From Eubacteriales bacterium (GTDB lineage Bacteria; Bacillota; Clostridia; Oscillospirales; CAG-272): 64,000 nucleotides of DNA. How positions within the stretch are numbered: the first letter of the stretch is position 1; the number at the start of each line of letters is the position of its first letter. The notes beneath the pieces were generated by a model, which was not told the origin of the DNA, made no database searches, and was given only the letters and a program-made list of their open reading frames with translations. This document shows positions 958 to 61,325 of this stretch, in pieces. The translations under genes and the position numbers were made by a program. The stretch spans positions 14,938 through 78,937 of the forward strand of contig JAZOOS010000014.1 of the NCBI GenBank assembly GCA_045655185.1. The letters are read 5' to 3'.

Positions 958-994
958 CCTGCGCGCATAAAAAGAACACAACCGGGGCTGCCGT

Positions 995-1198
995 ATTTAG
1001 GCATAACCGCAAACAAAAAGAGTTGTATTGCTTTTGCAGTGCAACTCTTTTTGACTTCTTCGGTATTCTTTCGGCTTTCAGGCAAAAACAACGTTTTTGC
1101 CTGAAATTATTATATTTTGTTTGCTATCGCCGTTTTCGTTCTTCAACGTACCCGTGTACGTCTATCAGAACGAAGAACGGCAATTTCTGCTCTAAATC
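995..1198. repeat. structured intergenic repeat, copy U1 (same family as 19806-20577 and 41513-41598)
   Basis: Starts ATTTAGGCATAACCGCAAA and ends ATTTCTGCTCTAAATC, which is its imperfect inverted complement. In between lie an A-run/hairpin/T-run (GAGTTG..CAACTC), a TTCGGTATTC box, the short hairpin GGCAAAAAC..GTTTTTGCC, a TTGTTTGCTATCGCC box, and a two-tier hairpin CCGTTTTCGTTC..ACGTAC-CCGT-GTACGT..GAACGAAGAACGG. Confidence 0.7.
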
Positions 1199-1330
1199 CG
1201 TTTGCCCCTTACTTCGGATACCGCGCCGATTCGGGGGTAGTCATTTATGCAAATAAACTCCCACCCCCTCACGCCTTGTATCCTCGTCTTGCGTCCTTTG
1301 AATTCGCGTTCCTTGTTGTGTTTTGTTTGC

Positions 1331-1367
1331 AAAAGAAAAGGAAACGGCAACTGCCGTTTCCTTTTTT
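1331..1367. terminator. bidirectional intrinsic terminator between pnp region and GH28 gene
   Basis: GGAAACGG-caactg-CCGTTTCC hairpin flanked by an A-run and a T-run, immediately 3' of the minus-strand CDS ending at 1370. Confidence 0.6.
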
Positions 1368-1369
1368 GC

Positions 1370-3394: not shown

Positions 3395-3969
3395 TTTTCA
3401 AGCGTTTTTTCAAACGGCCAAGGGGTGGGCTGATGATCCTTGATAAGATAGGCTTCCTTGGCAAGGCGCGCCATCGGGGTATCCGAAAGCGAATCCGAAT
3501 AAAAGCATTCGACCTCCCCCTCGGGAAAGACCTCATAGAAGCGGCGGCATTTTTCCTCACCGTAGCAATTTTCCCCGGTATAGGCGCCACTTTTTTTATC
3601 AACGCGCGAGGCGATCAGCGTACCGAAGCCGATCCGCTTTGAGATCTCCTCCAAAAGAAAGGTCGGGGAAGCCGAGATCACCACGTCATCGGGGCGCTTT
3701 ATCGCCGCGTAATAGGGCTCAAGATCTTTTTCGTGCTTGTCCCAGAAAAGCTTTACCTCACGGTCGATATCGTCAATACGGCGAAAGGCCGAAAAAAGCT
3801 TTTCCTTCATTTGGGTCTTGTCGATCCGCTTAAAGCGGTAGGCAAGCGCCGCCTTTATCTGGCGGGGAAGCTCTAAAAGAAGCGAGGGGTGCCGCCAAAG
3901 CAGAAAGCGGTAAAATTGGAAGGTGCTGTCACAAGGATACAGCGTTTTATCAAAATCGTAAGCGTTCAT
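3391..3969 (-). CDS. HAD-superfamily hydrolase (phosphoserine-phosphatase-like subfamily)
   Basis: 192 aa. N-terminal DxDxT motif (YDFDKTL). Lies 3 nt downstream of prfC in the same orientation. Confidence 0.7.
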   Translation of the reverse strand: MNAYDFDKTLYPCDSTFQFYRFLLWRHPSLLLELPRQIKAALAYRFKRIDKTQMKEKLFSAFRRIDDIDREVKLFWDKHEKDLEPYYAAIKRPDDVVISASPTFLLEEISKRIGFGTLIASRVDKKSGAYTGENCYGEEKCRRFYEVFPEGEVECFYSDSLSDTPMARLAKEAYLIKDHQPTPWPFEKTLEK

Positions 3970-5592: not shown

Positions 5593-7191
5593 TTATACGA
5601 GCGCCTCGAAGCGGCGAACCCCACGCCCCCTTATCCAAGCCAGGAGAAGGAGGGAAAGAAGAAGCGGGATCAGCGTAAGGATCGAAAGCACCCAAAGGGG
5701 CGGCAAAATAAACGAGAGAAGGAATCCTCCGACAAGAAGGATAAAGGATAAAAAGCCCGAGGTAAGCATCGAAAAGAGCGAGGCGGCACCTTGCTTTACG
5801 GGTACTAAGAGATTGTTCCATTCAAGCTTCGGGAACAGAAGATTGAGGGTGAGCCCCAAAAGCGAAGCGCACACCGCAAAGATCAAGGGCAGGATAAGCG
5901 AAAGGATCGCTACGGGGAGAGCGGGGGTGAGGGCGATAAGGTAGATGACCCACGCCAGAAAAACGGTGATCGCCGTCGGAATGATTTGCAGAAGAAGCTT
6001 GGAATAAAGAATGGTTCGGGTGGGGACCGGCGAGGTACGCGCGATCCAAAGGCTTTTCCCCTCCAAGGAGACCGAAGCGCAGGAAAGCATCGTCATCGAA
6101 GAGATAAGGCAGCTGGCGAGCGGGGTAAGCACGGGGAGCATTCCCATCAATTCGGGAAGCTCTGCCGAGAGGGCAAACAGGGTATCACGCTCAATCAAAA
6201 GTAGGATCGGCAAAGCGAGCATAAAGAGAAGCCCGATACAACCGTTCAGTATATAGCCCGAGGAGGAAGCAAGATAGAAGAGTTCCTTTTTCGTAAAGGC
6301 CCAAATGGCGCTTGTTTTTTGAACCGTTTTTTCTTTATACGCGCGCTTACGGTGAACGGCGGGCGAGAGAACGGTTTTGAAAAAGGTTTTACTGAGCCAG
6401 TAGTACACCCCGCCAAAAAGCAGAGCCGATACGGCCAAAACGAGCAGAAAATGAAGAAAGGAGCCAAGGGCGGCGCGGCCGAACACGGCAAAGGGAAGCG
6501 CCTTTTGCAAAAAGGAGAGAAGCGGCCCGATCCCCTCCGCGGTGAATCCCTCCATCAGCATCTCGGCCTTTCCCATCAGCCAGAAATAGGCTACGAAAAA
6601 TCCGATCGCGAAAAGAACCGAGGTCAGCTGCTTATAGCGGATCCTTTGTATGATCTTGGTCAAGCACCAGCCAAAAAGGCAGGAGATCGCAAGCGTCGGG
6701 AAGGGGAGAATCAAAAAGCAAAGAAGGCACAGCGCGATATGCCCGAAGGAAAGAGGGGCAACGAGTAGCCATACGATAAAGCCGGGGATGAAGACGATCG
6801 CCTGCATCGCGTAGTTGAGAAGCAGCAAAAAGAGCATGCGGCTACATAGGATCAGATGCGGCGGAATGGGAAGAGACAGCAAAAAGGCGTTATCGCCCGC
6901 CTCAAACAGCTGGCTTTGCGTAAAGACGATACTGCCAAGCAGCATAAAGCCCATCGCGATAAGGGACATAAGGGAAAAGTACGCAAAGGGCTCTCCCAGC
7001 GAAAGGAAGAGCGGGGCCATCGAGCTGAAAACCAAAAGGAAAAGCCCGAAGAAGACGGCAAAGATGTATAAAAAGGCAAGCCCCAAAAGAATAGTAAGCG
7101 GAATGGAATGACGCTTCTTTGCCTTGTTTTTTTGGTTGCCAAAAAACAGCGAAAGGAAACGGATCTTAACCAAAAGCCATAGGGTCCTCAC
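5593..7191 (-). CDS. ABC-2-type exporter permease (polytopic membrane protein)
   Basis: 532-aa highly hydrophobic ORF. GTG start 3 nt after the stop of the ABC ATPase, preceded by GGGGAGG. Confidence 0.7.
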   Translation of the reverse strand: MRTLWLLVKIRFLSLFFGNQKNKAKKRHSIPLTILLGLAFLYIFAVFFGLFLLVFSSMAPLFLSLGEPFAYFSLMSLIAMGFMLLGSIVFTQSQLFEAGDNAFLLSLPIPPHLILCSRMLFLLLLNYAMQAIVFIPGFIVWLLVAPLSFGHIALCLLCFLILPFPTLAISCLFGWCLTKIIQRIRYKQLTSVLFAIGFFVAYFWLMGKAEMLMEGFTAEGIGPLLSFLQKALPFAVFGRAALGSFLHFLLVLAVSALLFGGVYYWLSKTFFKTVLSPAVHRKRAYKEKTVQKTSAIWAFTKKELFYLASSSGYILNGCIGLLFMLALPILLLIERDTLFALSAELPELMGMLPVLTPLASCLISSMTMLSCASVSLEGKSLWIARTSPVPTRTILYSKLLLQIIPTAITVFLAWVIYLIALTPALPVAILSLILPLIFAVCASLLGLTLNLLFPKLEWNNLLVPVKQGAASLFSMLTSGFLSFILLVGGFLLSFILPPLWVLSILTLIPLLLSLLLLAWIRGRGVRRFEALV

Positions 7192-7194
7192 GGC

Positions 7195-7917
7195 TTATTC
7201 CTCCCCGTTGTCCTTGGCGGCAAGATCCAAAAACACCGATTCGAGCGACGCGTCTCCGCGAACCGCGTCCATATCGCCCGAAACAAGCAGCTGCCCGTCC
7301 TTGATAATGGCGACCTTGTCGCAAAGCTTTTCGGCAACGTCTAAAACGTGGGTCGAGAAGAAGATCGCGCCGCCGCGGTCACAGTGCTCGCGCATCAGGG
7401 TCTTTAAGATATGCGAGGCGCGCGGGTCAAGCCCCACGAAGGGCTCGTCAAGCAAAATCAGCTTCGGCTCGTGCAAAAGGGCGCTGATGACGGCCAGCTT
7501 TTGCTTCATCCCGTGCGAATAGGTCGAGATCGGCTGCCCAAGCGCTTCCTTGATCTCAAAAAGCTCTGCGTAATGCGAAATGCGCCCGTTTCTCTCTTCG
7601 GTGCCGACACCGAAGATATCGGCGACGAAATTCAGATAGCGGATGCCGCTTAAAAAGTCATAAAGATCGGGGTTGTCGGGCAGATACGCCATTTTTGCCT
7701 TGCAGGCGAGCGGATCGTCCTTTATCGAAACGCCGTCGATCAGGATCTCTCCCCCCTCAAAGGGAAGGATCCCCGCCGCGGCCTTTAAGGTCGTGGTCTT
7801 GCCGGCGCCGTTGTGGCCGATAAAGGCAAAAAGCTCACCGGGCTTAATATGAAGCGAAAGGGCGTCAACCGCCTTTTTTTCTCCGTACCGCTTCGTCAGA
7901 TTTTCAATTTTCAGCAT
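7195..7917 (-). CDS. ABC transporter ATP-binding protein
   Basis: Start trimmed to MLKIENLTKRYG (ATG at 7917). Walker A GHNGAGKTT, signature-like YSHGMKQK, Walker B LILLDEP. The longer track ORF (to 8280) overlaps the chromate transporter gene. Confidence 0.9.
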   Translation of the reverse strand: MLKIENLTKRYGEKKAVDALSLHIKPGELFAFIGHNGAGKTTTLKAAAGILPFEGGEILIDGVSIKDDPLACKAKMAYLPDNPDLYDFLSGIRYLNFVADIFGVGTEERNGRISHYAELFEIKEALGQPISTYSHGMKQKLAVISALLHEPKLILLDEPFVGLDPRASHILKTLMREHCDRGGAIFFSTHVLDVAEKLCDKVAIIKDGQLLVSGDMDAVRGDASLESVFLDLAAKDNGEE

Positions 7918-7940
7918 AGCGTACTCCTGTAAGGTATTAT

Positions 7941-8531
7941 TTACAAACCGTAGAAAAGCATCCCAAGACCCGCCGCGATAAAGATCAGAAGGATCGGGGA
8001 CATGGCTTTCTTGCGAAGCTTCGAATAGAGGAACAGAACCGCGGTAAGGATCAGCGCGATAAGAAGCGCGAAAAGGTCGAAGGCGCCGAAGCCTTGCGGG
8101 AAGACGGTAAAGATATTTTCCAGCAGCATAAAGGCGCCGGTCACCGCGATGATACCCGTAACGGCAGGGGCGATCGCCGCAAGAACCGCTTTTACGTGCG
8201 GATTGGTAAGATAGCGCCGCAGAAGCGACGAAATAAGGATCATCACGACAAGGGCGGGCAAAACGACGCCAAGCGTACAAAGGGCAGAGCCCAGCACCCC
8301 TGCGAAAAAGCCAAATTCATTTCCCTTGGTGAAGCCGACGTAGGTGGCCATATTGACCATGATGGGGCCGGGGGTCGATTCGCTGACACCGAGGAAGTAG
8401 CTGAATTGCTCTTCACTCAGCCAAGCGTTGCTTAGCACGGCGTCACGAATAAGCGGGATCGCGCCGTAAGCGCCCCCGAAGGTAAACATCCCGATCTTTA
8501 AAAATTCCCAGAAAAGCTGTAAAAAGATCAC
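7941..8531 (-). CDS. chromate transporter (ChrA/CHR family) half-size subunit
   Basis: 196 aa. FLKIGMFTFGGAYGAIPLI..ESTPGP motifs typical of CHR family. Confidence 0.85.
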   Translation of the reverse strand: MIFLQLFWEFLKIGMFTFGGAYGAIPLIRDAVLSNAWLSEEQFSYFLGVSESTPGPIMVNMATYVGFTKGNEFGFFAGVLGSALCTLGVVLPALVVMILISSLLRRYLTNPHVKAVLAAIAPAVTGIIAVTGAFMLLENIFTVFPQGFGAFDLFALLIALILTAVLFLYSKLRKKAMSPILLIFIAAGLGMLFYGL

Positions 8532-19192: not shown

Positions 19193-19795
19193 ATGAGAAC
19201 GAAGGACGAGCAATTCTTTTGCGTTATTATGAACTTTATCGACAGCTATACCGAAAGCAACGGCTTTTCCCCCACCGTGCGTGAGATCGCGGAGGCGACG
19301 GGGATCCCGCGCTCTACGGTACAGCGCTATCTTACCGATATGATCACCGACGGGCGGGTAAGAAGCGGCGGTCGGCGCAGCTACGTGACCGAAAACGCGC
19401 GCCAGATGCGCCGTGATTTTATAAGGGTTCCGATCCTTGGCGCGGTCTCTTGCGGCCTCCCGATCTATGCCGAAGAGAATATTGAGGAATACGTGCAGCT
19501 TCCCGCCGTTCTTTTCGGTACGGGCGATTTTTATATGCTGCGCGCCAACGGCTATTCGATGATCGACGTTGGTATCAGCAACGGCGATTACGTCCTCATT
19601 CGCCGCCAGCAAACGGCCGAGCCCGGTGAGATCGTCGTCGCGCTCGTGGAGGATGAGGCGACCTTAAAGCGCTATTACCCGGAGCCCGAGCGCCATCGCA
19701 TCCGTCTGCATCCCGAAAACAAGATTATGGACGATATCTACGTTCCCGACTGTGAGATACAGGGGATCGCCGTTAAGGTCCTAAAGGATCTTTGA
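19193..19795 (+). CDS. lexA: LexA-family repressor / S24 self-cleaving peptidase
   Basis: Start at MRTKDEQ (ATG 19193). Winged-helix N-domain (GFSPTVREIAEATGIPRSTVQRYL). S24 domain with Ser (GYSM) and Lys (ATLKRYY). The cleavage-site position reads Cys-Gly (GAVSCGLP). Confidence 0.85.
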   Translation: MRTKDEQFFCVIMNFIDSYTESNGFSPTVREIAEATGIPRSTVQRYLTDMITDGRVRSGGRRSYVTENARQMRRDFIRVPILGAVSCGLPIYAEENIEEYVQLPAVLFGTGDFYMLRANGYSMIDVGISNGDYVLIRRQQTAEPGEIVVALVEDEATLKRYYPEPERHRIRLHPENKIMDDIYVPDCEIQGIAVKVLKDL

Positions 19796-19805
19796 GTGGC
19801 TTCAT

Positions 19806-20034
19806 ATTTAGGCATAATCGCAAATAAAAAAGGGATTGGTGTTGCTCTGCTTCGCCTTCCCTTTTTTACTTTAAGAATTTTATTGCCTTTGCGTTCTTTC
19901 TAACGAGTTTTAGGTTGAAAAACGTTCGTTTTTCCTCATTTTGATTATATTTTTTATTTGCGATCACCGTTTGTTCCCTCTCGACGTACTTTTGTACGCC
20001 TTCGGAGAGCAAACGATGATTTCTGCTCTAAATC
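19806..20034. repeat. structured intergenic repeat, copy U2
   Basis: Same module order as U1. Ends are ATTTAGGCATAATCGC / ATTTCTGCTCTAAATC. Long hairpin CGTTTG..CTCTC-GACGTAC-tttt-GTACGCC-GAGAG CAAACG. Confidence 0.7.
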
Positions 20035-20052
20035 TGTGCGCCCCGACCTCGT

Positions 20053-20274
20053 ATTTGCGCATAATCGCAAACAAAAGGGTTTGTAATGCTTTGCATCGCA
20101 ATCCCTTTTTCTTTTTAAAAATTTTTTGCTTTTGTATTCCTTCTTACCATTTTTAAGGTTGAAAAACATTCGTTTTTCTTCCAAAAAATCAAATTTGTTT
20201 GCTATCCCCGTTCTTTGATTTCGACGTATAGTATACGTCTATCAATCAAAGAACGGGCATTTCTGCATCAAATC
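20053..20274. repeat. structured intergenic repeat, copy U3
   Basis: Ends ATTTGCGCATAATCGC / TTTCTGCATCAAATC. Long hairpin CCCGTTCTTTGATT..GACGTATA-g-TATACGTC..AATCAAAGAACGGG. Confidence 0.7.
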
Positions 20275-20294
20275 CGTACGTCTTGGGCTTGTTG

Positions 20295-20500
20295 ATTTGG
20301 GCGAAATCGAAAAGGAAAAGGGATTATATGTTTTTGCATATGGTCCCTTTTTTACATCTTCGGTATTCGGTTGTTTTTAAGGTTGAAAGCCGTTGGTTTT
20401 CTGCCGTCTTTTTTTGTATTCCTTTTCTATCGCCGTTCTTCGGGCTCGACGTACCGTTGTACGCCTCACGCCCGAAGAACGACAATTTTTCCTCCAAATC
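20295..20500. repeat. structured intergenic repeat, copy U4
   Basis: Ends ATTTGGGCGAAATCG / TTTTTCCTCCAAATC. Long hairpin CGTTCTTCGGGC..GACGTAC-cgtt-GTACGCC..GCCCGAAGAACG. Confidence 0.7.
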
Positions 20501-20519
20501 TACGGCGCCCTTTTTGTTG

Positions 20520-20577
20520 ATTTGGGTGAAACCGAAAAAGAAAAGAGGAACCGATGCTTTATCGGTTCCTCTTTTCT
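20520..20577. repeat. structured intergenic repeat, partial copy U5 (5' end plus first hairpin); doubles as terminator of the DUF362 gene
   Basis: ATTTGGGTGAAACCGAAAAAGAAAA + GAGGAACCGAT-gcttt-ATCGGTTCCTC + TTTTC, abutting the stop codon at 20578. Confidence 0.6.
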
Positions 20578-21735
20578 TTATTTTCTCTTTTGGTGCGTTA
20601 AGATTTTGGCAAGCGCCGTGCGCTTGACCTTCATCGCGCCCACGGGGCAGAATTCCTGGCAACAGAAGCAACGGATGCAAAGGCTGCGGTCGATCCTCGG
20701 CCGCTTATCCTTCATCACGATCGCCTTGGCAGGGCAGACCTCGGCGCATTTTTTGCAGCCGATGCACGCATCCTTTTCGGGAGTCGGGCGGGAGGCCAGC
20801 GCCTTCTCGGCAATTTTCCCAAGCCACTTACCGAGAATACCGGGTAGCTGATTGGCAAATTGCAGGCTATGCCGCTCGGTAATCAGCTGAAAATCATCTA
20901 CGCGGAATTCCGAAAGCCCTTCGGGGGGCGTTTCTTCTTCGTCAAGAAGCCCACGCTTGACGGCGTTCGTAACGGTGGGGACCTCGTTCTTGTTAAGCCC
21001 GATCAGCGAAAGGGCGGCAAGGTCTAAGGCGTAGGGAGAGGGGGAGGCCAGCAGCACGCCGACCTTGCGGGGAGAGCCCGCCGTGGGGCCGTTTCCTTCC
21101 ATCCCGACGACGGCGTCGATCAAGGAAAGGCGGCAGGGGAGAAATTCGTTAAGATCGATCAGCATATCGGCAAATCGACCTTCGTCCGCATGGGTGAAAT
21201 GATACTCCAGCTTCATCGTGCCGGGAATGATACCGAAAAGGTTTTTCACCGCGCCCGAATAACCCATCATACCGTGAGTCTTCAGCTTGGCGAAATTGAT
21301 TACGGCGTCCGCCTTGCGCAGCCAAGCGGCCACCGAGATGCGGCGGATCTCGCGCCCCTCTTCAAAGGGGACCTCTTCAATCGAAAAATCGTCGTTCAGC
21401 TTCGCGCCGACCTCTTCGACCGCGTGCATACCCGATGCGCGGTAGACCTGTGAAAGCCAAACCGCCGTAAAGGGCCCTCCGGGGCTATCCCCCACCGTGA
21501 CCTCGGCGCCCCGCTCGATAAGCAGGGCGCAAAGGGCGCGAACGAGTGAAGGATGCGTCACGGCGGCGCTTTCGGGCTTCATGGGGGCAACGAGATTGAC
21601 CTTAACGGCGATCTTCATTCCCTCGTTTACCCAGGAGAGTGCGCCCGTTTCAATCAGCAAGGAGCGAAAAGCTTCTTCAATGTGCCCGCTCTCGTAGTCA
21701 GAACAGGGCGAATAGTAAACCATACTTTGCATCAT
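20578..21735 (-). CDS. DUF362 domain protein with C-terminal 2x[4Fe-4S] ferredoxin domain
   Basis: 385 aa. DUF362-like N-terminal body. C-terminal CIGCKKCAEVCP and CIRCFCCQEFCP cluster motifs. Confidence 0.85.
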   Translation of the reverse strand: MMQSMVYYSPCSDYESGHIEEAFRSLLIETGALSWVNEGMKIAVKVNLVAPMKPESAAVTHPSLVRALCALLIERGAEVTVGDSPGGPFTAVWLSQVYRASGMHAVEEVGAKLNDDFSIEEVPFEEGREIRRISVAAWLRKADAVINFAKLKTHGMMGYSGAVKNLFGIIPGTMKLEYHFTHADEGRFADMLIDLNEFLPCRLSLIDAVVGMEGNGPTAGSPRKVGVLLASPSPYALDLAALSLIGLNKNEVPTVTNAVKRGLLDEEETPPEGLSEFRVDDFQLITERHSLQFANQLPGILGKWLGKIAEKALASRPTPEKDACIGCKKCAEVCPAKAIVMKDKRPRIDRSLCIRCFCCQEFCPVGAMKVKRTALAKILTHQKRK

Positions 21736-23718: not shown

Positions 23719-23795
23719 GGAGGCATAGCTCAGTTGGTTAGAGCGCATGCTTGACATGCATGAGGTCATAGGTTCAACTCCTATTGTCTCCACCA
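23719..23795 (+). tRNA. tRNA-Val (anticodon GAC), CCA encoded
   Basis: Cloverleaf by eye. Acceptor GGAGGCA/TGTCTCC, anticodon stem CATGC/GCATG with loop TTGACAT, T-arm ATAGG-TTCAACT-CCTAT, 3' ACCA. Confidence 0.95.
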
Positions 23796-30474: not shown

Positions 30475-30551
30475 TGGCTGGGATAGTTGGATTTGAACCA
30501 ACGAAATGCCAGAGTCAAAGTCTGGTGCCTTAACCGCTTGGCTATATCCCA
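30475..30551 (-). tRNA. tRNA-Gln (anticodon TTG), CCA encoded
   Basis: Minus strand TGGGATATAGCCAAGCGGTTAAGGCACCAGACTTTGACTCTGGCATTTCGTTGGTTCAAATCCAACTATCCCAGCCA. Acceptor TGGGATA/TATCCCA, anticodon loop CTTTGAC, T-arm GTTGG-TTCAAAT-CCAAC. Confidence 0.95.
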
Positions 30552-31432: not shown

Positions 31433-31461
31433 AAGAAGCAAGTTACAGAAGCAGAAGAAAT

Positions 31462-31597
31462 CCAATATAAATTCGGAATATCGGCCCGAACGTTTCTACC
31501 GCACGCCAAAGATGCGACTATTGGTTCCCCTTCTTTTTTCTTTATTTGTTTAGGGGTTTTTGGCAGTCGCACGGTACAACGGGGCGTCTGCTTTTTT
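31462..31597 (+). promoter_or_regulatory. purine (guanine/xanthine-type) riboswitch with terminator expression platform
   Basis: Aptamer 31462-31524. P1 CCAATA/TATTGG, P2 TTCGG/CCGAA, conserved J2/3 GTTTCTACC, J3/1 GAC with C at the specificity position. Terminator GCAGTCGC/GCGTCTGC + T7 at 31562-31597. Directly upstream of xpt. Confidence 0.8.
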
Positions 31598-31614
31598 TGA
31601 TTTTTGGGGGAGCT

Positions 31615-32190
31615 ATGAAGGCACTGGAAGAGAAGATCCGCCGCGAGGGCGTTGTACTGACCGAGGATATCTTAAAGGTTGGCAGCTTTTTGAACCAGCA
31701 GGTTGACGCCGCCTTTATGTTAGAGATCGGGCAGGAGATCGCGCGCCTTTTCAAAGAGGACAAGGTCGATAAGGTCTTAACGCTCGAATCCTCGGGCATC
31801 ATTATGTCGGTGCCGGCGGCCGCCGCGCTCGGCGTACCGCTTCTTATCGCCAAAAAGAGCCCTGCTTCTACCCAAACCGGGAAGACCTATTCCTCAAAGG
31901 TCACCTCCTTTACCCACGGAAACACCTATTTCGCGACGGTCGGCGCCGAATACCTCAAGGCGGGTGAGCGCGTTCTGATCGTAGACGATTTTTTGGCCCG
32001 CGGGGCGGCCCTTGTCGGTCTTTGCGATATCGTAAAGCAGGCGGGTGCCGTGGCTGTCGGCGCGGCGATCGTGATCGAAAAGCAGTATCAAGGCGGCGGG
32101 GACAAGCTGCGCGCCGAAGGGCTGCGGATCGAATCGCTTGCTAAGATCGTGAAAATGAGCCCTACGGAGGGCATCACCTTTGCCGATTAA
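31615..32190 (+). CDS. xpt: xanthine phosphoribosyltransferase
   Basis: Start at MKALEEKIRREG (GGGGGAG upstream). PRPP-binding VLIVDDFLARG motif. 191 aa. Confidence 0.9.
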   Translation: MKALEEKIRREGVVLTEDILKVGSFLNQQVDAAFMLEIGQEIARLFKEDKVDKVLTLESSGIIMSVPAAAALGVPLLIAKKSPASTQTGKTYSSKVTSFTHGNTYFATVGAEYLKAGERVLIVDDFLARGAALVGLCDIVKQAGAVAVGAAIVIEKQYQGGGDKLRAEGLRIESLAKIVKMSPTEGITFAD

Positions 32191-36448: not shown

Positions 36449-37422
36449 TTTCCTTTTTAGTTGGCGCGATCGCGCTTTCAACCGTATTTCTTTTTGGGTG
36501 TGTCGGTGAGATCATCACCGAAAAGGCGGGTCACTTAAACCTCGGTATCCCCGGCATTATGTGCGTGGGGACGGCGGGGGGCTGCTATGCCATTACATTG
36601 TATATGCGCACGCTTTCCGATCCCCGTGAGGCTTCGTGGTTTCTTCTTATTCTTTTTTCCGTGCTGCTTGGCTTTTTGTTCGCGGCGGCTCTTGGTGGGA
36701 TCTACGGCCTTTTGACCGTATCGCTGCGTTGCAACCAAAATATCACGGGGCTTGCCGTTACGATCTTTGGAAACGGCTTTACCCAGTTTTTTATGGAAAC
36801 TTTTGTCGCAAACGGTGATATTGATCAAGCAAATTTGCAGATTGCGGGTAAGATCGTTTCAGAGCACTTGCCTTTTGCGGATTCGCTTGGTGCCATTGGG
36901 AAAATTTTTCTTTCTCACGGTGCCTATGTGTATTTGGCTATTGTGGTGGCCGTTCTTGCCGCGTGGTTCTTAAAGCGGACGCGCGCAGGGCTGTATCTTC
37001 GCGCTGTGGGTGAAAATCCTGCAACGGCGGATGCCGCAGGCATCAACGTAACGGCGTATAAATACGGCGCGATCCTTATCGGAAGCGGTATCGCGGGTCT
37101 TGGCGGAGTCTTTTATATTATGGACCTTAATAAAGGCTGCTGGGAAAATGCGGCTACCATCGAAGGGCTTGGCTGGCTTTCGATCGCCCTCGTTATCTTT
37201 ACGCTGTGGAAGCCGAACCTCAGTATCCTCGGCTCGTTTGTGTTTGCTGCTCTGTATATCGTAGCCGAATATCTCAACGGAAACAGTACGCAGAAAGAGC
37301 TTTTCAATTTGATCCCCTATGTGATGACGATCGTCGTTCTGATCTTCACCAGCATCAAGGGAAGCAAGAACAACCAGGCCCCTGCCTCGCTCGGTCTGCC
37401 GTATTTCCGCGAAGAGCGTTAA
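36445..37422 (+). CDS. ABC transporter permease
   Basis: 325-aa polytopic ORF with a 4-nt overlap with the preceding permease gene. Confidence 0.85.
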   Translation: MISFLVGAIALSTVFLFGCVGEIITEKAGHLNLGIPGIMCVGTAGGCYAITLYMRTLSDPREASWFLLILFSVLLGFLFAAALGGIYGLLTVSLRCNQNITGLAVTIFGNGFTQFFMETFVANGDIDQANLQIAGKIVSEHLPFADSLGAIGKIFLSHGAYVYLAIVVAVLAAWFLKRTRAGLYLRAVGENPATADAAGINVTAYKYGAILIGSGIAGLGGVFYIMDLNKGCWENAATIEGLGWLSIALVIFTLWKPNLSILGSFVFAALYIVAEYLNGNSTQKELFNLIPYVMTIVVLIFTSIKGSKNNQAPASLGLPYFREER

Positions 37423-37437
37423 AACGTCAAAAAAGAG

Positions 37438-37462
37438 AAAGCCCGACCCGGTCGGGTTTTTT
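37438..37462 (+). terminator. intrinsic terminator of the xpt-ABC operon
   Basis: CCCGAC-ccg-GTCGGG followed by TTTTTT. Confidence 0.55.
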
Positions 37463-37534
37463 CTTGCCCCTTGCAAAAGGATTTTCGGTGTGCTATACTA
37501 TATAAGATAAGCAAAAGGAAGAAAGGAGAAGAAA

Positions 37535-40218: not shown

Positions 40219-41502
40219 ATGTTTATCGATTCGATTAAAATTTACGTAAAGGCCGGGGACGGCGGTAACGGCGCCGTAACCTTCCATCGCGAGAAATACG
40301 TGGCGGCGGGCGGGCCCGACGGCGGCGACGGCGGAAACGGCGGACACGTTATTTTCCGTGTCGACAAGGGGGCCAACACCCTGCTTGCCTTCCGCTATAA
40401 GCGCAAGTTCGTGGCCGAAAGCGGGGACGGCGGCCGTGGCGATAAGTTTCACGGCAAAAGCGGAGAATCGCTGTATATTCCCGTACCGCAGGGCACCCTG
40501 ATCCGTGAAGCGGAGACGGGGAAGATCATTCACGATATGTCCGACGGTGAGGATTTCATCATCTGCCGCGGCGGTCGCGGTGGCTGGGGTAACCGCCATT
40601 TCGCTACCCCCACGCGCCAGATCCCACGCTTTGCCAAAAGCGGGACCCGCGGAGAAGAGCGAGAAGTGCTTTTAGAGCTGAAAATGATCGCGGACGTGGG
40701 GCTGGTCGGTTTCCCGAACGTGGGGAAATCGTCTTTGCTTTCCCGTCTTTCCGCCGCAAGACCCAAGGTGGCCGACTATCATTTCACCACCCTTTCACCG
40801 AATCTTGGCGTCGTTCCCGCGGGGGACGGTGGCCACGGCTTCGTGATCGCCGATATCCCCGGGCTTATCGAGGGCGCGGCGGACGGCTTGGGGCTTGGGC
40901 ACGATTTCCTTCGCCATATCGACCGTTGCCGTTTGTTGCTTCACGTGGTGGATATCGCGGGCACTGAGGGCAGAGATCCCAAAGAGGATCTTGATAAGAT
41001 CGACCGCGAGCTTTCGCTTTACAGCGAGGAGCTTGCGAGTCGCCGCCAGATCGTGATCGCCAACAAGAGCGACGCGATCGACCGAGAGGATCCCGCGGTA
41101 AAAGAATTCGAGGAATACGTTTCCTCTCTTGGCAGACGGCTGATCTTTGTTTCGGCCGCCACCGGGGAAGGGCTTCGCGAATTGGTCAGGGCTACCGAGG
41201 AAGCGCTTGTCGATCTGCCGGGCATTACGGTATACGAGCCCGAGGTCACGATGGAGGAACGGACGACCCGCGGCGCGGGGCAAAAGGAAACGACTGTTCG
41301 CCAAGAGAACCGCGTCTTCTTCGTCGAGGGCGAGTGGCTGCGTAATCTTCTCGGCCAGGTCAACTTTGAGGATCGCGAATCAATCGCCTTCTTCCAGCGT
41401 ATTCTCTTAAAGGAAGGGATCATTGATCGCCTTCGTGAAAAGGGAATCGAGGAAGGCGAGCTGGTCAATATCTACGACTTCGAATTTGAGTTTTACGATT
41501 AA
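40219..41502 (+). CDS. obg: GTPase Obg/CgtA
   Basis: N-terminal Gly-rich Obg fold (GGDGGNGG), G domain GFPNVGKSS, C-terminal OCT domain. Confidence 0.95.
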   Translation: MFIDSIKIYVKAGDGGNGAVTFHREKYVAAGGPDGGDGGNGGHVIFRVDKGANTLLAFRYKRKFVAESGDGGRGDKFHGKSGESLYIPVPQGTLIREAETGKIIHDMSDGEDFIICRGGRGGWGNRHFATPTRQIPRFAKSGTRGEEREVLLELKMIADVGLVGFPNVGKSSLLSRLSAARPKVADYHFTTLSPNLGVVPAGDGGHGFVIADIPGLIEGAADGLGLGHDFLRHIDRCRLLLHVVDIAGTEGRDPKEDLDKIDRELSLYSEELASRRQIVIANKSDAIDREDPAVKEFEEYVSSLGRRLIFVSAATGEGLRELVRATEEALVDLPGITVYEPEVTMEERTTRGAGQKETTVRQENRVFFVEGEWLRNLLGQVNFEDRESIAFFQRILLKEGIIDRLREKGIEEGELVNIYDFEFEFYD

Positions 41503-41512
41503 GGACTATCGT

Positions 41513-41598
41513 ATTTAGGCATAATCGCAAATAAAAAGGAGTTATACTGCTTTGGCAGTGTAACTCCTTTTACCTTTTTCGTATTCTATCTTTTTATT
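41513..41598. repeat. structured intergenic repeat, partial copy U6 (5' end, first hairpin, TTCGTATTC box); acts as a bidirectional terminator
   Basis: ATTTAGGCATAATCGCAAATAAAAA + GGAGTTATACTGC-tttg-GCAGTGTAACTCC + TTTT...TTCGTATTCT, between convergent obg and ppiB. Confidence 0.65.
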
Positions 41599-57614: not shown

Positions 57615-57734
57615 ATTTGCTGGTATGCGTTGAAGTGGGAGATTGCTGCCTACCCTGGGGCAGGGAACTTCCATGGAGTATGTCCGTTAAACGGGCGATG
57701 TCGAATAGTATGCCGTAGGGGGCATACCTTCCTG

Positions 57735-58155: not shown

Positions 58156-58249
58156 TCAAATTTAGTTTTCCCACCACATCCTTGTGGTCACGTTGGCGTT
58201 CCGAGCGATCGGGAAATTCAAAGCGTCAACCAATAACTAGGAGGAAAAA

Positions 58250-58882
58250 ATGAAAAAAGGCATTATCGGAAAGAAGCTGGGTATGACCCAGATCTTCGAT
58301 GAAGTCGGAAACGTGATCCCCGTTACCCTGATCGAAGCCGGTCCTTGCGCCATCGCGCAGAAGAAGACCGCCGAGAAAGACGGGTACGAGGCTCTGCAGC
58401 TGTCCTTTGACGATTGCAGAGAAAAGGTTCTTTCGAAACCGGAAATCGGCCACCTGAAGAGTGCCGGTCTCGGTGCCAAAAGACATCTGAAGGAATTTCG
58501 TCTTGCGGATTGCAGCGCTTACAACGTGGGCGACGTGATTTCTGCCGATACCTTCGCCAGCGGCGATAAGGTCGACATTACCGGAATCACCAAGGGCCAC
58601 GGCTACACGGGCGCTATCAAACGCTGGAACCACCACATCCTGCGGATGACTCACGGTACGGGTCCTGTACACCGTCAGGTCGGTTCTATGGGTGCCAACT
58701 CGACGCCCTCCCGCGTTTACAAGAACAAGAAAATGGCAGGCCAGTACGGTAACGAGCAGGTAACCATCCTGAATCTTGCTGTCGTTAAGGTCGATGCAGA
58801 GAAAAACCTGATCGCGGTCAAGGGCGCCGTTCCCGGTGCCAAGGGCGGTATCGTCTTCATCCGCGATTCGGTGAAAGCATAA
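58250..58882 (+). CDS. rplC: 50S ribosomal protein L3
   Basis: MKKGIIGKKLGMTQIFDE..; operon order. Confidence 0.97.
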   Translation: MKKGIIGKKLGMTQIFDEVGNVIPVTLIEAGPCAIAQKKTAEKDGYEALQLSFDDCREKVLSKPEIGHLKSAGLGAKRHLKEFRLADCSAYNVGDVISADTFASGDKVDITGITKGHGYTGAIKRWNHHILRMTHGTGPVHRQVGSMGANSTPSRVYKNKKMAGQYGNEQVTILNLAVVKVDAEKNLIAVKGAVPGAKGGIVFIRDSVKA

Positions 58883-58900
58883 CGGAAGGAGGAACAAACA

Positions 58901-59524
58901 ATGCCTACTATGAAAGTTGTTGATATGGCCGGCAAAGAGGTTGGCTCGATCGAGCTGTCCGAAAAGGTGTTTGGCGCCGAGGTTAACGCCGCGCTCCTCC
59001 ACACCGCTGTCAGAGCTTATCTTATGAATCAACGTCAGGGCACGCAATCCACCCTCACCCGCAGCGAAGTCTCGGGCGGCGGTAAGAAGCCCTGGAAGCA
59101 GAAGGGCACCGGTAGAGCAAGACAGGGCTCGACCCGTTCCCCTCAGTGGGTACACGGCGGTATCGCCCTGGGCCCGAAGCCCCGCACCTATCATATTGAG
59201 ATGAACCGCAAGGCTAAGCAAGCTGCTATGTTCAGCGCCTTCTCTTCTAAGGTAGCCGCCGGCGAGATGATCGTCGTCGACGCCATCAATGCGACCGAAT
59301 ACAAGACCAAGGCTATGACCGAGATGCTCGCCGCGCTGAACGCTGGCAAGAAGACGCTGATCGTTCTGCCCGAGGTCAATGCCTTCGTCGTGAAGAGCTG
59401 CGCCAACATCCCCGGTGTCAAAACGGCGGTCTGCAACGCGATCTGCACCTATGACATCCTGAATTGCGATACCTTCATCATCGCCAGTGATGCGGTCAAG
59501 AAGATTGAGGAGGTTTACGCATAA
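58901..59524 (+). CDS. rplD: 50S ribosomal protein L4
   Basis: KPWKQKGTGRARQGS motif; operon order. Confidence 0.97.
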   Translation: MPTMKVVDMAGKEVGSIELSEKVFGAEVNAALLHTAVRAYLMNQRQGTQSTLTRSEVSGGGKKPWKQKGTGRARQGSTRSPQWVHGGIALGPKPRTYHIEMNRKAKQAAMFSAFSSKVAAGEMIVVDAINATEYKTKAMTEMLAALNAGKKTLIVLPEVNAFVVKSCANIPGVKTAVCNAICTYDILNCDTFIIASDAVKKIEEVYA

Positions 59525-59817
59525 TGAGAAGCATTGAAAACGTCATCGTAAGACCTCTTATCACCGAAAAGAGCATGGACGGCGTTGCCGAGAAGCGTTA
59601 CTGCTTCGAGGTTGCTGCCGATGCCACCAAGGCCGATATCGCGGCGGCAGTCGAAGCGATGTTCGGTGTTGAGGTTAAGAGTGTCAACACGATCAACATG
59701 AAAAAGAAACCGAAGCGCCTTGGCGTTCACGCCGGTTTCACCAGCGAGTGGAAGAAAGCGATCGTTCTTCTGAAGGAAGATTCCAAGACGATCAGCTTCT
59801 TCGACAGCATGAACTGA
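59524..59817 (+). CDS. rplW: 50S ribosomal protein L23
   Basis: VIVRPLITEKS motif; operon order. Confidence 0.96.
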   Translation: MRSIENVIVRPLITEKSMDGVAEKRYCFEVAADATKADIAAAVEAMFGVEVKSVNTINMKKKPKRLGVHAGFTSEWKKAIVLLKEDSKTISFFDSMN

Positions 59818-59835
59818 TAAGGGAGGAAGAAGAAA

Positions 59836-60666
59836 ATGGCTGCTATCAAATATAGTCCTACTACTCCGTCCCGCAGAAATATGTCGGCGCCCTCTTTCAG
59901 CGAGATCACCAAGTTCGAGCCTGAGAAGTCGCTCTTGGTCGTTAAGAAGAAGAACGCGGGCCGTAACAGCTACGGTAAGATCACCGTTCGTCACAAGGGT
60001 GGCGGAAACAGACAGAAGTACCGCTTGATCGACTTCAAGCGTCAGAACGAGAGCCCTGCGACGGTCGTCGGCATTGAGTACGACCCCAACCGCACGGCTT
60101 ATATCGCCCTTCTGCAGCATGAGGACGGCAAGAAGAACTACGTTATCGCGACCGACGGTCTGCGCGCCGGCGACGTGATCTACGCTTCGGCCGATGCCGA
60201 TATCAAGGTCGGTAACACCCTGCCGATCGCCAACATTCCCGTTGGTACCTTTATTAACAACATTGAGCTTTATCCCGGCAAGGGGGCCCAGATGGTCCGT
60301 TCCGCCGGCGCCTCGGCCCAGCTGATGGCGAAGGAGAACGGGATCGCCCAGGTCCGTCTTCCCTCGGGTGAGGTTCGTATGGTTCGCCTCGATTGCAAGG
60401 CGACCATCGGTCAGATCGGTAACATCGAGCACGACACCGTTAAGCTCGGTAAGGCCGGTAAGACCCGCCACAAGGGTATCCGTCCGACCGTTCGCGGTTC
60501 GGTTATGAACCCCTGTGACCACCCTCACGGCGGTGGTGAAGGTAAGTCCCCCATCGGTCGTCCCGGCCCTGTAACGCCTTGGGGCAAGCCCGCCCTCGGT
60601 TACAAGACCAGAGACCGTAAGGCAAGGACCGATAAGTTCATCGTTAAGCGCAGAAATGCGAAATAA
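59836..60666 (+). CDS. rplB: 50S ribosomal protein L2
   Basis: [18 protein letters not shown] motif. Confidence 0.97.
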
Positions 60667-60684
60667 GCGGAAGGAGACAAGAGT

Positions 60685-60966
60685 ATGAGCAGAAGCCTGA
60701 AAAAAGCCCCTTACGTAAAGCCGGAGCTTTACAACAAGATCGTTGCTATGAACGAAAAGGGCGAAAAGAAGGTTTTGAAAACCTGGTCTCGCGCCTCCAC
60801 CGTTTTCCCGGATTTCGTTGGGCATACGATCGCCGTTCACGACGGTAGAAAGCATGTTCCGGTGTATATCACCGAGGATATGGTAGGTCGCAAGCTGGGC
60901 GAATTCGCCCCCACCCGTACCTTTAAGGGCCACGCGGGTTCGAAGACCTCCAACAACGGGAAATGA
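60685..60966 (+). CDS. rpsS: 30S ribosomal protein S19
   Basis: [28 protein letters not shown]. Confidence 0.97.
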
Positions 60967-60983
60967 AAGGAGCAGACCTAAAA

Positions 60984-61325
60984 ATGGAAGCGAAGGCATA
61001 TCTGAAGTATATCAGAATTTCTCCGCGTAAGGTAAAGATCGTTCTCGATCTTATCCGCGGCAAGGATACCGAGGTCGCCATGGCGATCCTCGAGAACACG
61101 CAGAAGAGCGCATCCGAACCGCTGATCAAGCTTTTGAAGAGCGCCGTTGCCAATGCGGAACACAATTTCAATATGAACGCCGGAAACCTTTACATTTCCG
61201 AGTGCTTCGTCTGCCCCGGCCCGACTCTGAAGAGAGTACAGCCGAGAGCGCAGGGAAGAGCGTTCAGAATCTTAAAGAGAACCAGCCATATCACCATGGC
61301 AGTAAAAGAGAAGGAGGTCGGCTGA
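60984..61325 (+). CDS. rplV: 50S ribosomal protein L22
   Basis: Start at [16 protein letters not shown] (AAAGGAG upstream). Confidence 0.95.

Follow-up and report, generated by a model that had tools for sequence, protein, structure and literature searches.

Several families of small, structured repeats have been described between the genes of bacteria. The BOX elements (boxA-boxB(n)-boxC) of the pneumococcus, a Firmicute, are small, non-coding and dispersed, are modular and mosaic in build, and have ends that hybridise (Martin 1992; Croucher 2011, PMC3049150). Their internal part can be missing or multiplied while the fold stays intact, they are co-transcribed with their neighbours, and they are over-represented between convergent genes (PMC3049150). 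SPRITE repeats are terminator-like, with A-run and T-run ends, and lie near the 3' ends of mostly convergent genes; co-option as terminators has been proposed for them, and neither a target duplication nor a parent insertion sequence (IS) has been established (PMC3049150). The bcr1 repeats (~155 bp) found in the Bacillus cereus group and enterobacterial repeats of the ERIC/YPAL type are transcribed interspersed repeats whose cruciform-like RNA is kept by compensatory changes, and REP/BIME sequences occupy extragenic 3' ends of genes, are biased towards convergent genes, form mosaic clusters and have proposed roles in termination and mRNA stabilisation (PMC3184786). Pairing terminal inverted repeats (TIRs), modular arrays, a terminator-like form, 3'-end enrichment at convergent genes and compensatory changes all have precedents in BOX, RUP and SPRITE (PMC3049150) and in bcr1 and others (PMC3184786). 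Here we describe a repeat unit of ~235 nt from a 64,000-nt stretch of an Eubacteriales bacterium (assembly GCA_045655185.1, contig JAZOOS010000014.1, positions 14,938 to 78,937; this whole stretch is hereafter the window), where three and a half copies lie head to tail between a lexA-like gene and a convergent DUF362 gene. Copies dispersed in related genomes share a five-helix fold with compensatory changes and sit, in fixed orientation, just past the stop codons of unrelated genes. We lean towards reading the family as a structured repeat resembling a MITE (a miniature inverted-repeat transposable element), of the BOX, SPRITE and bcr1 kind, that has been co-opted as a terminator or 3'-untranslated region (3'-UTR) cassette.

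With BOX, the repeat shares its small size, non-coding nature, dispersal, modularity, tight fold with paired ends, and enrichment between convergent genes. However, BOX repeats one internal module, whereas here whole units are repeated head to tail, contain an intrinsic-terminator-like hairpin and are placed far more strictly, 0-13 nt past a co-oriented stop codon; BOX also makes target-site duplications, of which none were found here. We noticed no sequence likeness to BOX, and the two are set apart by description rather than by alignment. With SPRITE, the repeat has in common the look of a terminator, A/T-run outer ends, a position at gene 3' ends, and no established duplication or parent IS. 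SPRITE, however, is a single long hairpin with a U-rich tail, whereas the present unit packs five helices into ~235 nt, carries its terminator-like hairpin near the 5' end, forms arrays and belongs to a different lineage. The bcr1 repeats are flanked by 5-bp direct repeats and have no fixed position relative to stop codons, in contrast to the absence of a visible duplication and the fixed post-stop position and orientation seen here. REP sequences are 20-40-nt GC-rich palindromes of gamma-proteobacteria that alternate in orientation, carry a GTAG/CGTC tag and are mobilised by RAYT. The units here are far longer, as an earlier reading of the window without database searches (the first-pass annotation) had pointed out; they share one strand and one orientation and lack a conserved GTAG/CGTC end, and no RAYT was seen. 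Strict co-oriented placement past stop codons, whole-unit arrays, five-helix complexity, replacement of the resident terminator and strong conservation of orthologous copies set the repeat apart from BOX, SPRITE, bcr1 and ERIC alike.

Results

Fold of the repeat unit

The unit (about 225-250 nt) forms a long imperfect palindrome that folds into five helices, designated P1 to P5. Comparison of copies from other genomes gave a 5' end of (AAA)GGGGCTGTCAC-ATTTAGGCA and a 3' end of TGC-N-CTAAAT-C-YGNNN-GCCCC(TTT), and these termini pair with each other as P1, in which (AAA)GGGGCTGTCAC-ATTTAG-GCA faces TGC-N-CTAAAT-C-GTGAC..GCCCC(TTT). P2 joins an A-rich 5' box, ATCGCAAAyAAAA, to an internal TTTTrTTTGCkAT box (the TTTGTTTGC box), the partner box TTTGTTTGCTAT sitting ~120 nt downstream of the 5' box. 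Enclosed by P2 are P3, a variable hairpin that resembles an intrinsic terminator and is preceded by an A-run and followed by a U-run, and P4, a short hairpin GAAAACC-N3-GGUUUUC. P5 is a two-tier hairpin on a separate branch. The helices named in the first-pass annotation are all present and the seven modules in the order it gave were located in the units, although it had missed P2, the fifth helix. It had also separated the units by spacers of 18-20 bp, which proved to be the terminal helix's outer stretches (3' ...AAATC-YGNNN-GCCCC, 5' GGGCTKNNN-ATTT); because these supposed spacers belong to the unit ends, complete units follow one another with no gap. Presence of the middle module is optional; one copy, at L047 (loci fetched from other genomes are given L numbers), is without it.

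Folded one by one, 17 copies gave the same minimum-free-energy architecture almost every time. P3 forms an 11-18-bp stem in most of 33 copies despite quite different sequences, with energies of -6 to -27 kcal/mol (about -15 to -27 in most copies), and in most copies it has an A-run on one side and a T-run on the other. A stable stem-loop followed by a U-run, on the sense strand and after a gene, makes P3 a candidate intrinsic (Rho-independent) terminator.

Covariation and strand

Covariation was assessed on a MAFFT alignment of 33 distinct full copies from about 12 metagenome-assembled genomes (MAGs), with a structure derived from per-sequence folds of the same sequences on which covariation was counted; the P3 pairs were removed from that structure because MAFFT cannot align so variable a hairpin. 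Standard pairs were formed in 86.9% of 1993 cells, compared to 39-50% when the 3' partners were slid by 1-3 columns. Double-sided changes occurred in 36 of 61 pairs, and no shuffle among 500 matched the observed value on any of five measures. By helix, double changes affected 10 of the 19 pairs of P1, 6 of 11 in P2 and 14 of 16 in the outer tier of P5. In P1, 19 paired positions link alignment columns 10-29 with 260-281, with pairing in 86% of cells. RNAalifold independently recovered P2 and P5 from the alignment. P2 also covaries among the units of the window (ATCGCAAATAAAAAA/TTTTTTATTTGCGAT, ATCGCAAACAAA/TTTGTTTGCTAT and ATCGAAAAGGAA/TTCCTTTTCTAT), with the core changing between AAATAAAAAA/TTTTTTATTT, AAACAAA/TTTGTTT and AAAGGAA/TTCCTTT. 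The compensatory change in several helices that had been noticed within the window thus holds on 33 copies from other genomes, and the selection on a folded single strand that had been proposed from it is strongly backed by the common fold, the 86.9% pairing, the double changes and the shuffles.

G-U oppositions outnumber A-C oppositions, which are G-U on the other strand, by 48 to 13 in P1 and by 21 to 6 in P4, and P3 has 48 G-U pairs on the plus strand vs 14 on the minus strand. P3 is also more stable on the plus strand by 4.1 kcal/mol (30 of 33 copies, p 7e-6). These data do not favour an earlier suggestion that the first hairpin would terminate a minus-strand RNA. P1, P3 and P4 give a clear strand signal, but the picture is mixed overall, since P5 does not share it. 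About 13 of the 33 P5 arms contain a cUUCGg motif; UUCG tetraloops are unusually stable in RNA, and the motif hints that the folded molecule is RNA. The choice of RNA over DNA would otherwise be made on two sequence properties, orientation and G-U asymmetry.

Position relative to genes

Of 48 array starts, at least 38 follow closely on a co-oriented open reading frame (ORF), usually of >100 aa; its stop codon precedes ATTTAGG by 9-24 nt and the GGGGC terminus by about 0-13 nt. Among 39 scorable arrays, 25 sit between convergent genes. At one locus (L045), copies in both orientations lie within 8 kb, each behind its own gene, which argues that copy orientation follows transcription of the upstream gene and not replication. 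The upstream genes are unrelated to one another and have no functional theme; from their C-termini we take them to include GroEL, LeuRS, GlyRS, RF3, YchF, YebC, a helicase, permeases and regulators. At the end of an array, the final half-unit is predicted to terminate transcription in both directions, beside the convergent gene's stop codon.

A second family (B, the unit studied here being A) reads AAAGGGGCTGTCTCATTAAGAAT ... ATTCTTAATGAGACAGCCyCTTT and has terminator-like hairpins of its own. It was seen at L044:3836-3960, L006 and L012 (all in the MAG SIG696), at L048 and L033, at L058:3118-3222 and at L113:~7880-7975, and it is absent from the window. Families A and B share the outer terminus GGGGCTGTC(A/T)CAT. 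B often follows A, and the A+B composite fills the whole gap, with its outer termini abutting two convergent stop codons. A third element of ~110 nt, TTCCTAAAAC...GAAAAAACAATTATCAATTGTTTTTTCTCGTTTAC, was found inside unit copies of L004, L028 and L041 (SIG696), where it is nested in the 3' strand of P2 and, in L004, also in P5; it has no clear target duplication.

Comparison of filled and unfilled sites shows what the repeat displaces. In the JAZNDS genome, the locus L113 holds the ortholog of the window gene that ends at 37422, with A+B elements between its stop codon and the next promoter. Exactly where L113 carries them, the window has a plain A-run, hairpin and T-run past its permease gene (37423-37470). 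The orthologous loci L124 and L116 (one each in JAZRFI and JAZNDS) form a second filled/unfilled pair. In both, a conserved 30-codon ORF just upstream encodes a Cys-rich hydrophobic peptide, MNNCLCHLFDDNCTWIIIIALIILCCCCHG, and the element follows its stop codon.

Copies in the window

Copies in the window were detected with a hidden Markov model (HMM) built from the four units of the first-pass annotation. The copies and the genes next to the array are as follows.

984-1208, plus strand: U1, a solo full unit 27 nt past the PNPase stop codon (955-957); HMM match 995-1198, E 3.6e-54.
1209-1368, plus strand: a possible decayed extra unit past U1, tentative; weak HMM match, E 0.004 in a small search.
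19193-19795, plus strand: LexA-like gene (Peptidase_S24, Pfam), with the array following its 3' end.
19796-20044, plus strand: U2, a unit starting 1 nt past the lexA stop codon (19793-19795); HMM match 19806-20034, E 2.8e-48; P2 at 19817-19831/19950-19964 and the terminator-like hairpin P3 at 19822-19835/19858-19871.
20045-20284, plus strand: U3, a unit abutting U2; HMM match 20053-20274, E 3e-49; P2 at 20064-20075/20194-20205, P3 at 20073-20089/20093-20109 and the P5 outer tier at 20204-20220/20244-20260.
20285-20510, plus strand: U4, a unit abutting U3; HMM match 20295-20500, E 2.8e-55; P2 at 20306-20317/20419-20430, P3 at 20316-20330/20337-20351 and P5 at 20429-20445/20470-20486.
20511-~20592, plus strand: U5, a truncated unit with the 5' box and P3 hairpin only; HMM match 20520-20592.
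20578-21735, minus strand: convergent DUF362/4Fe-4S gene (DUF362 and Fer4, Pfam), whose stop codon abuts the last half-unit.
41503-41598, plus strand: U6, a truncated copy with the 5' end, P3 and module 3; HMM matches E 3e-11 (41513-41593) and E 4.9e-14.

The HMM recovered U2, U3 and U4 as full units and U5 as a partial one, all on the plus strand, in keeping with the three and a half head-to-tail copies originally proposed for the lexA/DUF362 spacer. U1 to U5 were all recovered from the original list of copies, which had overlooked U6. U6 fills the stretch from directly past the stop codon of Obg (41500-41502) to the stop of a convergent cyclophilin gene (41599); Pfam confirmed Obg before U6 and the PNPase C-terminus before U1 as flanking genes. 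P3 of U5 (20537-20579) has perfect 19-bp arms with an A-run and a T-run. It is a predicted terminator whichever strand is read, and it reaches into the stop codon (20578-20580) of the convergent DUF362 gene. The tentative unit at 1209-1368 contains a stretch like the 5' box (GGGGGTAGTCATTTATGCAAATAAAC), a TTTTGTTTGC box and, at 1334-1367, a terminator predicted in both directions. The window units are only ~63% identical to one another, and because of this Tandem Repeats Finder reported no array at the lexA/DUF362 spacer.

Three other roles for the sequence were rejected. A protein-coding role was discarded, as the array ORF has no Pfam match and ORFs are not kept between units or orthologs; indels between units are not multiples of three, and the five mismatches between the window and L054 (the JAZNDS lexA locus) have no codon periodicity. 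A start-stop mini-ORF, with a Shine-Dalgarno-like AAAGGGG and then AUU-UAG, was ruled out because it is not conserved between units. The outer GGGGC/GCCCC stem was likewise ruled out as the split arms of a resident terminator, since it is conserved across unrelated loci.

Array turnover and conservation of orthologous copies

Copy number at the lexA site differs among close relatives. The window has 3.5 units, JAZNDS (L054), whose LexA is 97% identical to that of the window, has 1.5, and JAZRFI (L053) has a 3' remnant plus 0.5 unit (~0.6). Four further relatives have a simple terminator, another neighbouring gene and 0 units at this site. In L054 the sole full unit combines U2 and U4, recombined within the conserved GACGTAC core, and has lost the pairing of P5. 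The n + 0.5 layout was also found elsewhere, with 3.5 units at L125, at least 2 at L111 and 1.5 at L103, L115 and L024; L034 has 0.5 unit at the locus where L024 has 1.5.

Where orthologous copies can be compared, they have changed little. The first 195 nt past the lexA stop codon, in U2, are identical at 190 of 195 positions (97.4%) between the window and JAZNDS (L054), linkers included, compared to 77.6% of third codon positions in lexA and 66.8% in the DUF362 gene. Mismatches in lexA run on to 21 nt before its stop codon. The orthologous copy at L124 and L116 is 95.2% identical vs 84.2% at third positions, and its ten differences include one C-G to U-A compensatory pair. In L116, an insertion of ~130 nt (~3450-3585) with its own A-run, hairpin and T-run lies inside the 5' box; the L124 ortholog is intact. 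Orthologous copies thus diverge 3-10 times slower than third codon positions. This fits purifying selection on the element, although at the lexA site a recombination tract that coincides with the element could be responsible instead.

Distribution of the family

The range of the family was established with two DNA-pattern scans, one genome per species, after which 1.2 Mb of loci were fetched. Dozens of true copies occur in about 12 MAGs labelled Eubacteriales, Oscillospiraceae, Clostridia or Acutalibacteraceae, which come from human and ruminant guts; the remaining matches of the scans were chance matches in unrelated phyla. SIG696 has at least 10 copies in its fetched loci alone. The closest relatives of the window are JAZRFI/SGB_7430 (L053) and JAZNDS/SGB_1951 (L054). 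JAZRFI alone matched in an exact look-up of the LexA protein, with 96% nucleotide identity, and an exact look-up of the Obg protein gave no match. In 80 more distant relatives, with PNPase at most 83% identical, 0 copies were found after pnp, where plain terminators stand instead; U1 has no clean empty site for comparison because the scan of the PNPase locus gave relatives at this distance only. Several MAG contigs (L002, L023, L005, L028 and others) end within repeat copies. The family probably breaks short-read assemblies, and because of this the copy numbers in MAGs would be underestimates.

Blastn against plasmid and phage collections gave no match to the repeat. Scans of viral contigs gave 0 matches and 3 chance matches, none of them recognised by the family HMM, and one metagenome scan with a U2-specific 22-mer gave a single chance match. 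No Rfam 15 family matches the repeat at the gathering threshold, and at E up to 10 the only matches were generic hairpin matches to P3 of U5, all far under the cut-offs. The units are thus without a known RNA family, as first thought, although interspersed repeats of this kind (BOX, SPRITE, bcr1, ERIC) are already described.

Other features of the window

Rfam matches above the gathering score placed a purine riboswitch at 31443-31540 (plus strand), just ahead of an ORF (31546-32190) for a phosphoribosyltransferase, an S10-Clostridia ribosomal leader at 57622-57698 (plus strand), and tRNAs at 23719-23792 (plus strand) and 30478-30551 (minus strand). Three long minus-strand ORFs, at 5593-7191, 58226-59221 and 59515-60999, have no Pfam match; the latter two are probably wrong-strand artefacts over the ribosomal-protein operon.

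Discussion

The family has much of the character of a MITE. The units are non-coding, bounded by a TIR of ~20-24 nt, dispersed in dozens of copies behind unrelated genes, and polymorphic for presence and absence between close relatives (L113 vs the window, L124 vs L116, and the lexA site). Because they are TIR-bounded, occur in many dispersed copies, are polymorphic in close relatives and form mosaics with a second family, we describe them as a MITE-like interspersed family. The possibility raised at the outset, that the units are a plain MITE, is only partly borne out: TIRs, dispersal, polymorphism and mosaics were found, yet neither a target-site duplication nor a parent IS was, and for this reason we do not call the family a plain MITE.

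In the reading to which we incline, a non-autonomous mobile or recombining element would take the slot just past the stop codon of a co-oriented gene and replace that gene's ordinary terminator. P3 would end the upstream transcript and, because of its A- and T-runs, is proposed to be able to stop the convergent transcript too. RNA that reads through would fold into the compact five-helix structure, which may buffer the mRNA 3' end against exonucleases; we infer both termination at P3 and stabilisation of the RNA. Arrays of n + 0.5 units would lengthen and shorten by homologous recombination between units. Mobility would be supplied in trans by an enzyme recognising the terminus that families A and B share, and spread by a single-stranded DNA (ssDNA)/HUH mechanism and spread by transcription-linked homing are both possible.

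Several observations weigh against this reading. As to the fold, the 205 cells in which double-sided changes were counted overstate the number of independent events, because copies in one alignment are related. The G-U signal is reversed in the outer tier of P5 (26 G-U vs 38 A-C), and folding of the whole unit is no more stable on the plus strand, with a mean of +3.5 kcal/mol favouring the minus strand. P1, P2 and P5 are completed downstream of the P3 terminator and, because of this, would form in RNA on read-through transcripts only. As to mobility, inspection of the flanks by eye revealed no convincing target-site duplication; the left flanks are rich in A and the right flanks in T, a pattern that is inverted and not direct. 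At the filled sites the repeat stands in place of a terminator and does not break into a sequence, and no clean insertion event was seen. When all fetched loci (1.2 Mb) were searched for another copy of the terminus, inverted and at a distance, no autonomous element with the same termini came to light, only the ends of A and B. Pfam showed no transposase, reverse transcriptase, integrase or Y1 domain among the 56 ORFs of the window, and the original statement that the window has no transposase, RAYT/TnpA or reverse transcriptase stands. Because neither an autonomous element nor a transposase was found, mobility is deduced from dispersal and polymorphism only.

A bolder reading of the same data is possible, though we think it unlikely. 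Together with family B, the repeat could represent an undescribed class of self-propagating "terminator cassettes" that home past stop codons and swap out the resident terminator, by a transcription-linked or hairpin/RNA-guided mechanism and not by cut-and-paste, with the five-helix RNA having a sequence-specific job in the 3'-UTR, e.g., protein binding, control of mRNA decay or ribosome release. Such a job would explain why orthologous copies change 3-10 times slower than synonymous sites.

We consider it improbable that the unit is an ssDNA hairpin element of the IS200/IS605-PATE or REP/BIME type, with a fold read by a Y1/HUH transposase encoded elsewhere and arrays formed by insertion next to the element's own end. 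Such an element would be in line with the preference of P1, P3 and P4 for one strand, with the zero spacing at unit junctions (...GCGCCCC joined directly to GGGCTTCGG...), with the conservation of structure above sequence in P3 and P5, and with the lack of a target-site duplication, which extends to the small elements nested in copies. However, the orientation of the copies tracks the upstream gene and not the direction of replication, as the facing copies within 8 kb show. The long TIRs are absent from IS200/IS605 ends, and the left flank has no conserved tetranucleotide, only an A-rich run; with the gene-following orientation, these also separate the unit from IS200/IS605-derived PATEs, which have subterminal hairpins, a fixed tetra- or pentanucleotide 5' of their left end and an orientation bound to replication. 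The ~235-nt units far exceed the 20-40 nt of REPs, the window encodes no Y1 transposase, and the cUUCGg motif in P5 suits RNA better than DNA, given the stability of its tetraloop.

The n + 0.5 layout seen in several genomes, in which another terminator-like hairpin follows every full unit, could also be read as T-(gene-T)n, that is, as tandem small RNA (sRNA) genes like LhrC, Qrr or PrrF, each with its own promoter and ending at the P3 of the next unit. The ability of the 3' box to pair with the 5' box of the next unit and the strong conservation of orthologous copies would agree with this. In an array of sRNA genes each unit should have a promoter and a terminator, but no sigma-70-like promoter was found inside any unit on either strand; a TTGACA-like motif past P3 lacks a -10 partner, and the AT-rich stretch ahead of P2 shows no conservation. 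P1 and P2, the helices with the best support, join parts before and after P3, and because they bridge it the folded entity spans the supposed gene boundary. Placement 0-13 nt past a stop codon would be unexpected for free-standing sRNA genes, and we regard this explanation as quite improbable.

Very improbable, finally, is a fold under no selection, in decaying selfish palindromic DNA whose complementarity is kept by gene conversion and by intrastrand template switching, a mutational process that corrects quasi-palindromes: very recent duplicates do differ by concerted changes in both hairpin arms (CTGT/ACAG vs TGGT/ACCA in P3 copies of L024; AACCGA/TCGGTT in the window vs AAACGA/TCGTTT in L054 for P3 of U5), the P5 outer tier has no G-U excess on the plus strand, and copies are often truncated or interrupted, but P1 and P2 covary though pairing across 150-230 nt, the excess of G-U over A-C in P1, P3 and P4 is unexpected from a strand-symmetric DNA process, orthologous copies diverge more slowly than third positions even in unpaired linkers, and strict placement and orientation would go unexplained.

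If the co-opted, MITE-like cassette that we favour is the true account, an abundant clade of uncultured gut and rumen Clostridia would have had many of its ordinary terminators swapped for a shared, mobile, structured cassette. This would affect the annotation of transcript ends and 3'-UTRs in MAGs, assembly breakpoints and the insulation of convergent genes. The conserved fold offers a ready-made covariance model for annotating the genomes of the clade. Strict co-oriented placement past stop codons, together with strong conservation of orthologous copies, is unusual for selfish repeats, and for this reason the family is a good test case for a mobile repeat becoming a functional 3'-UTR element.

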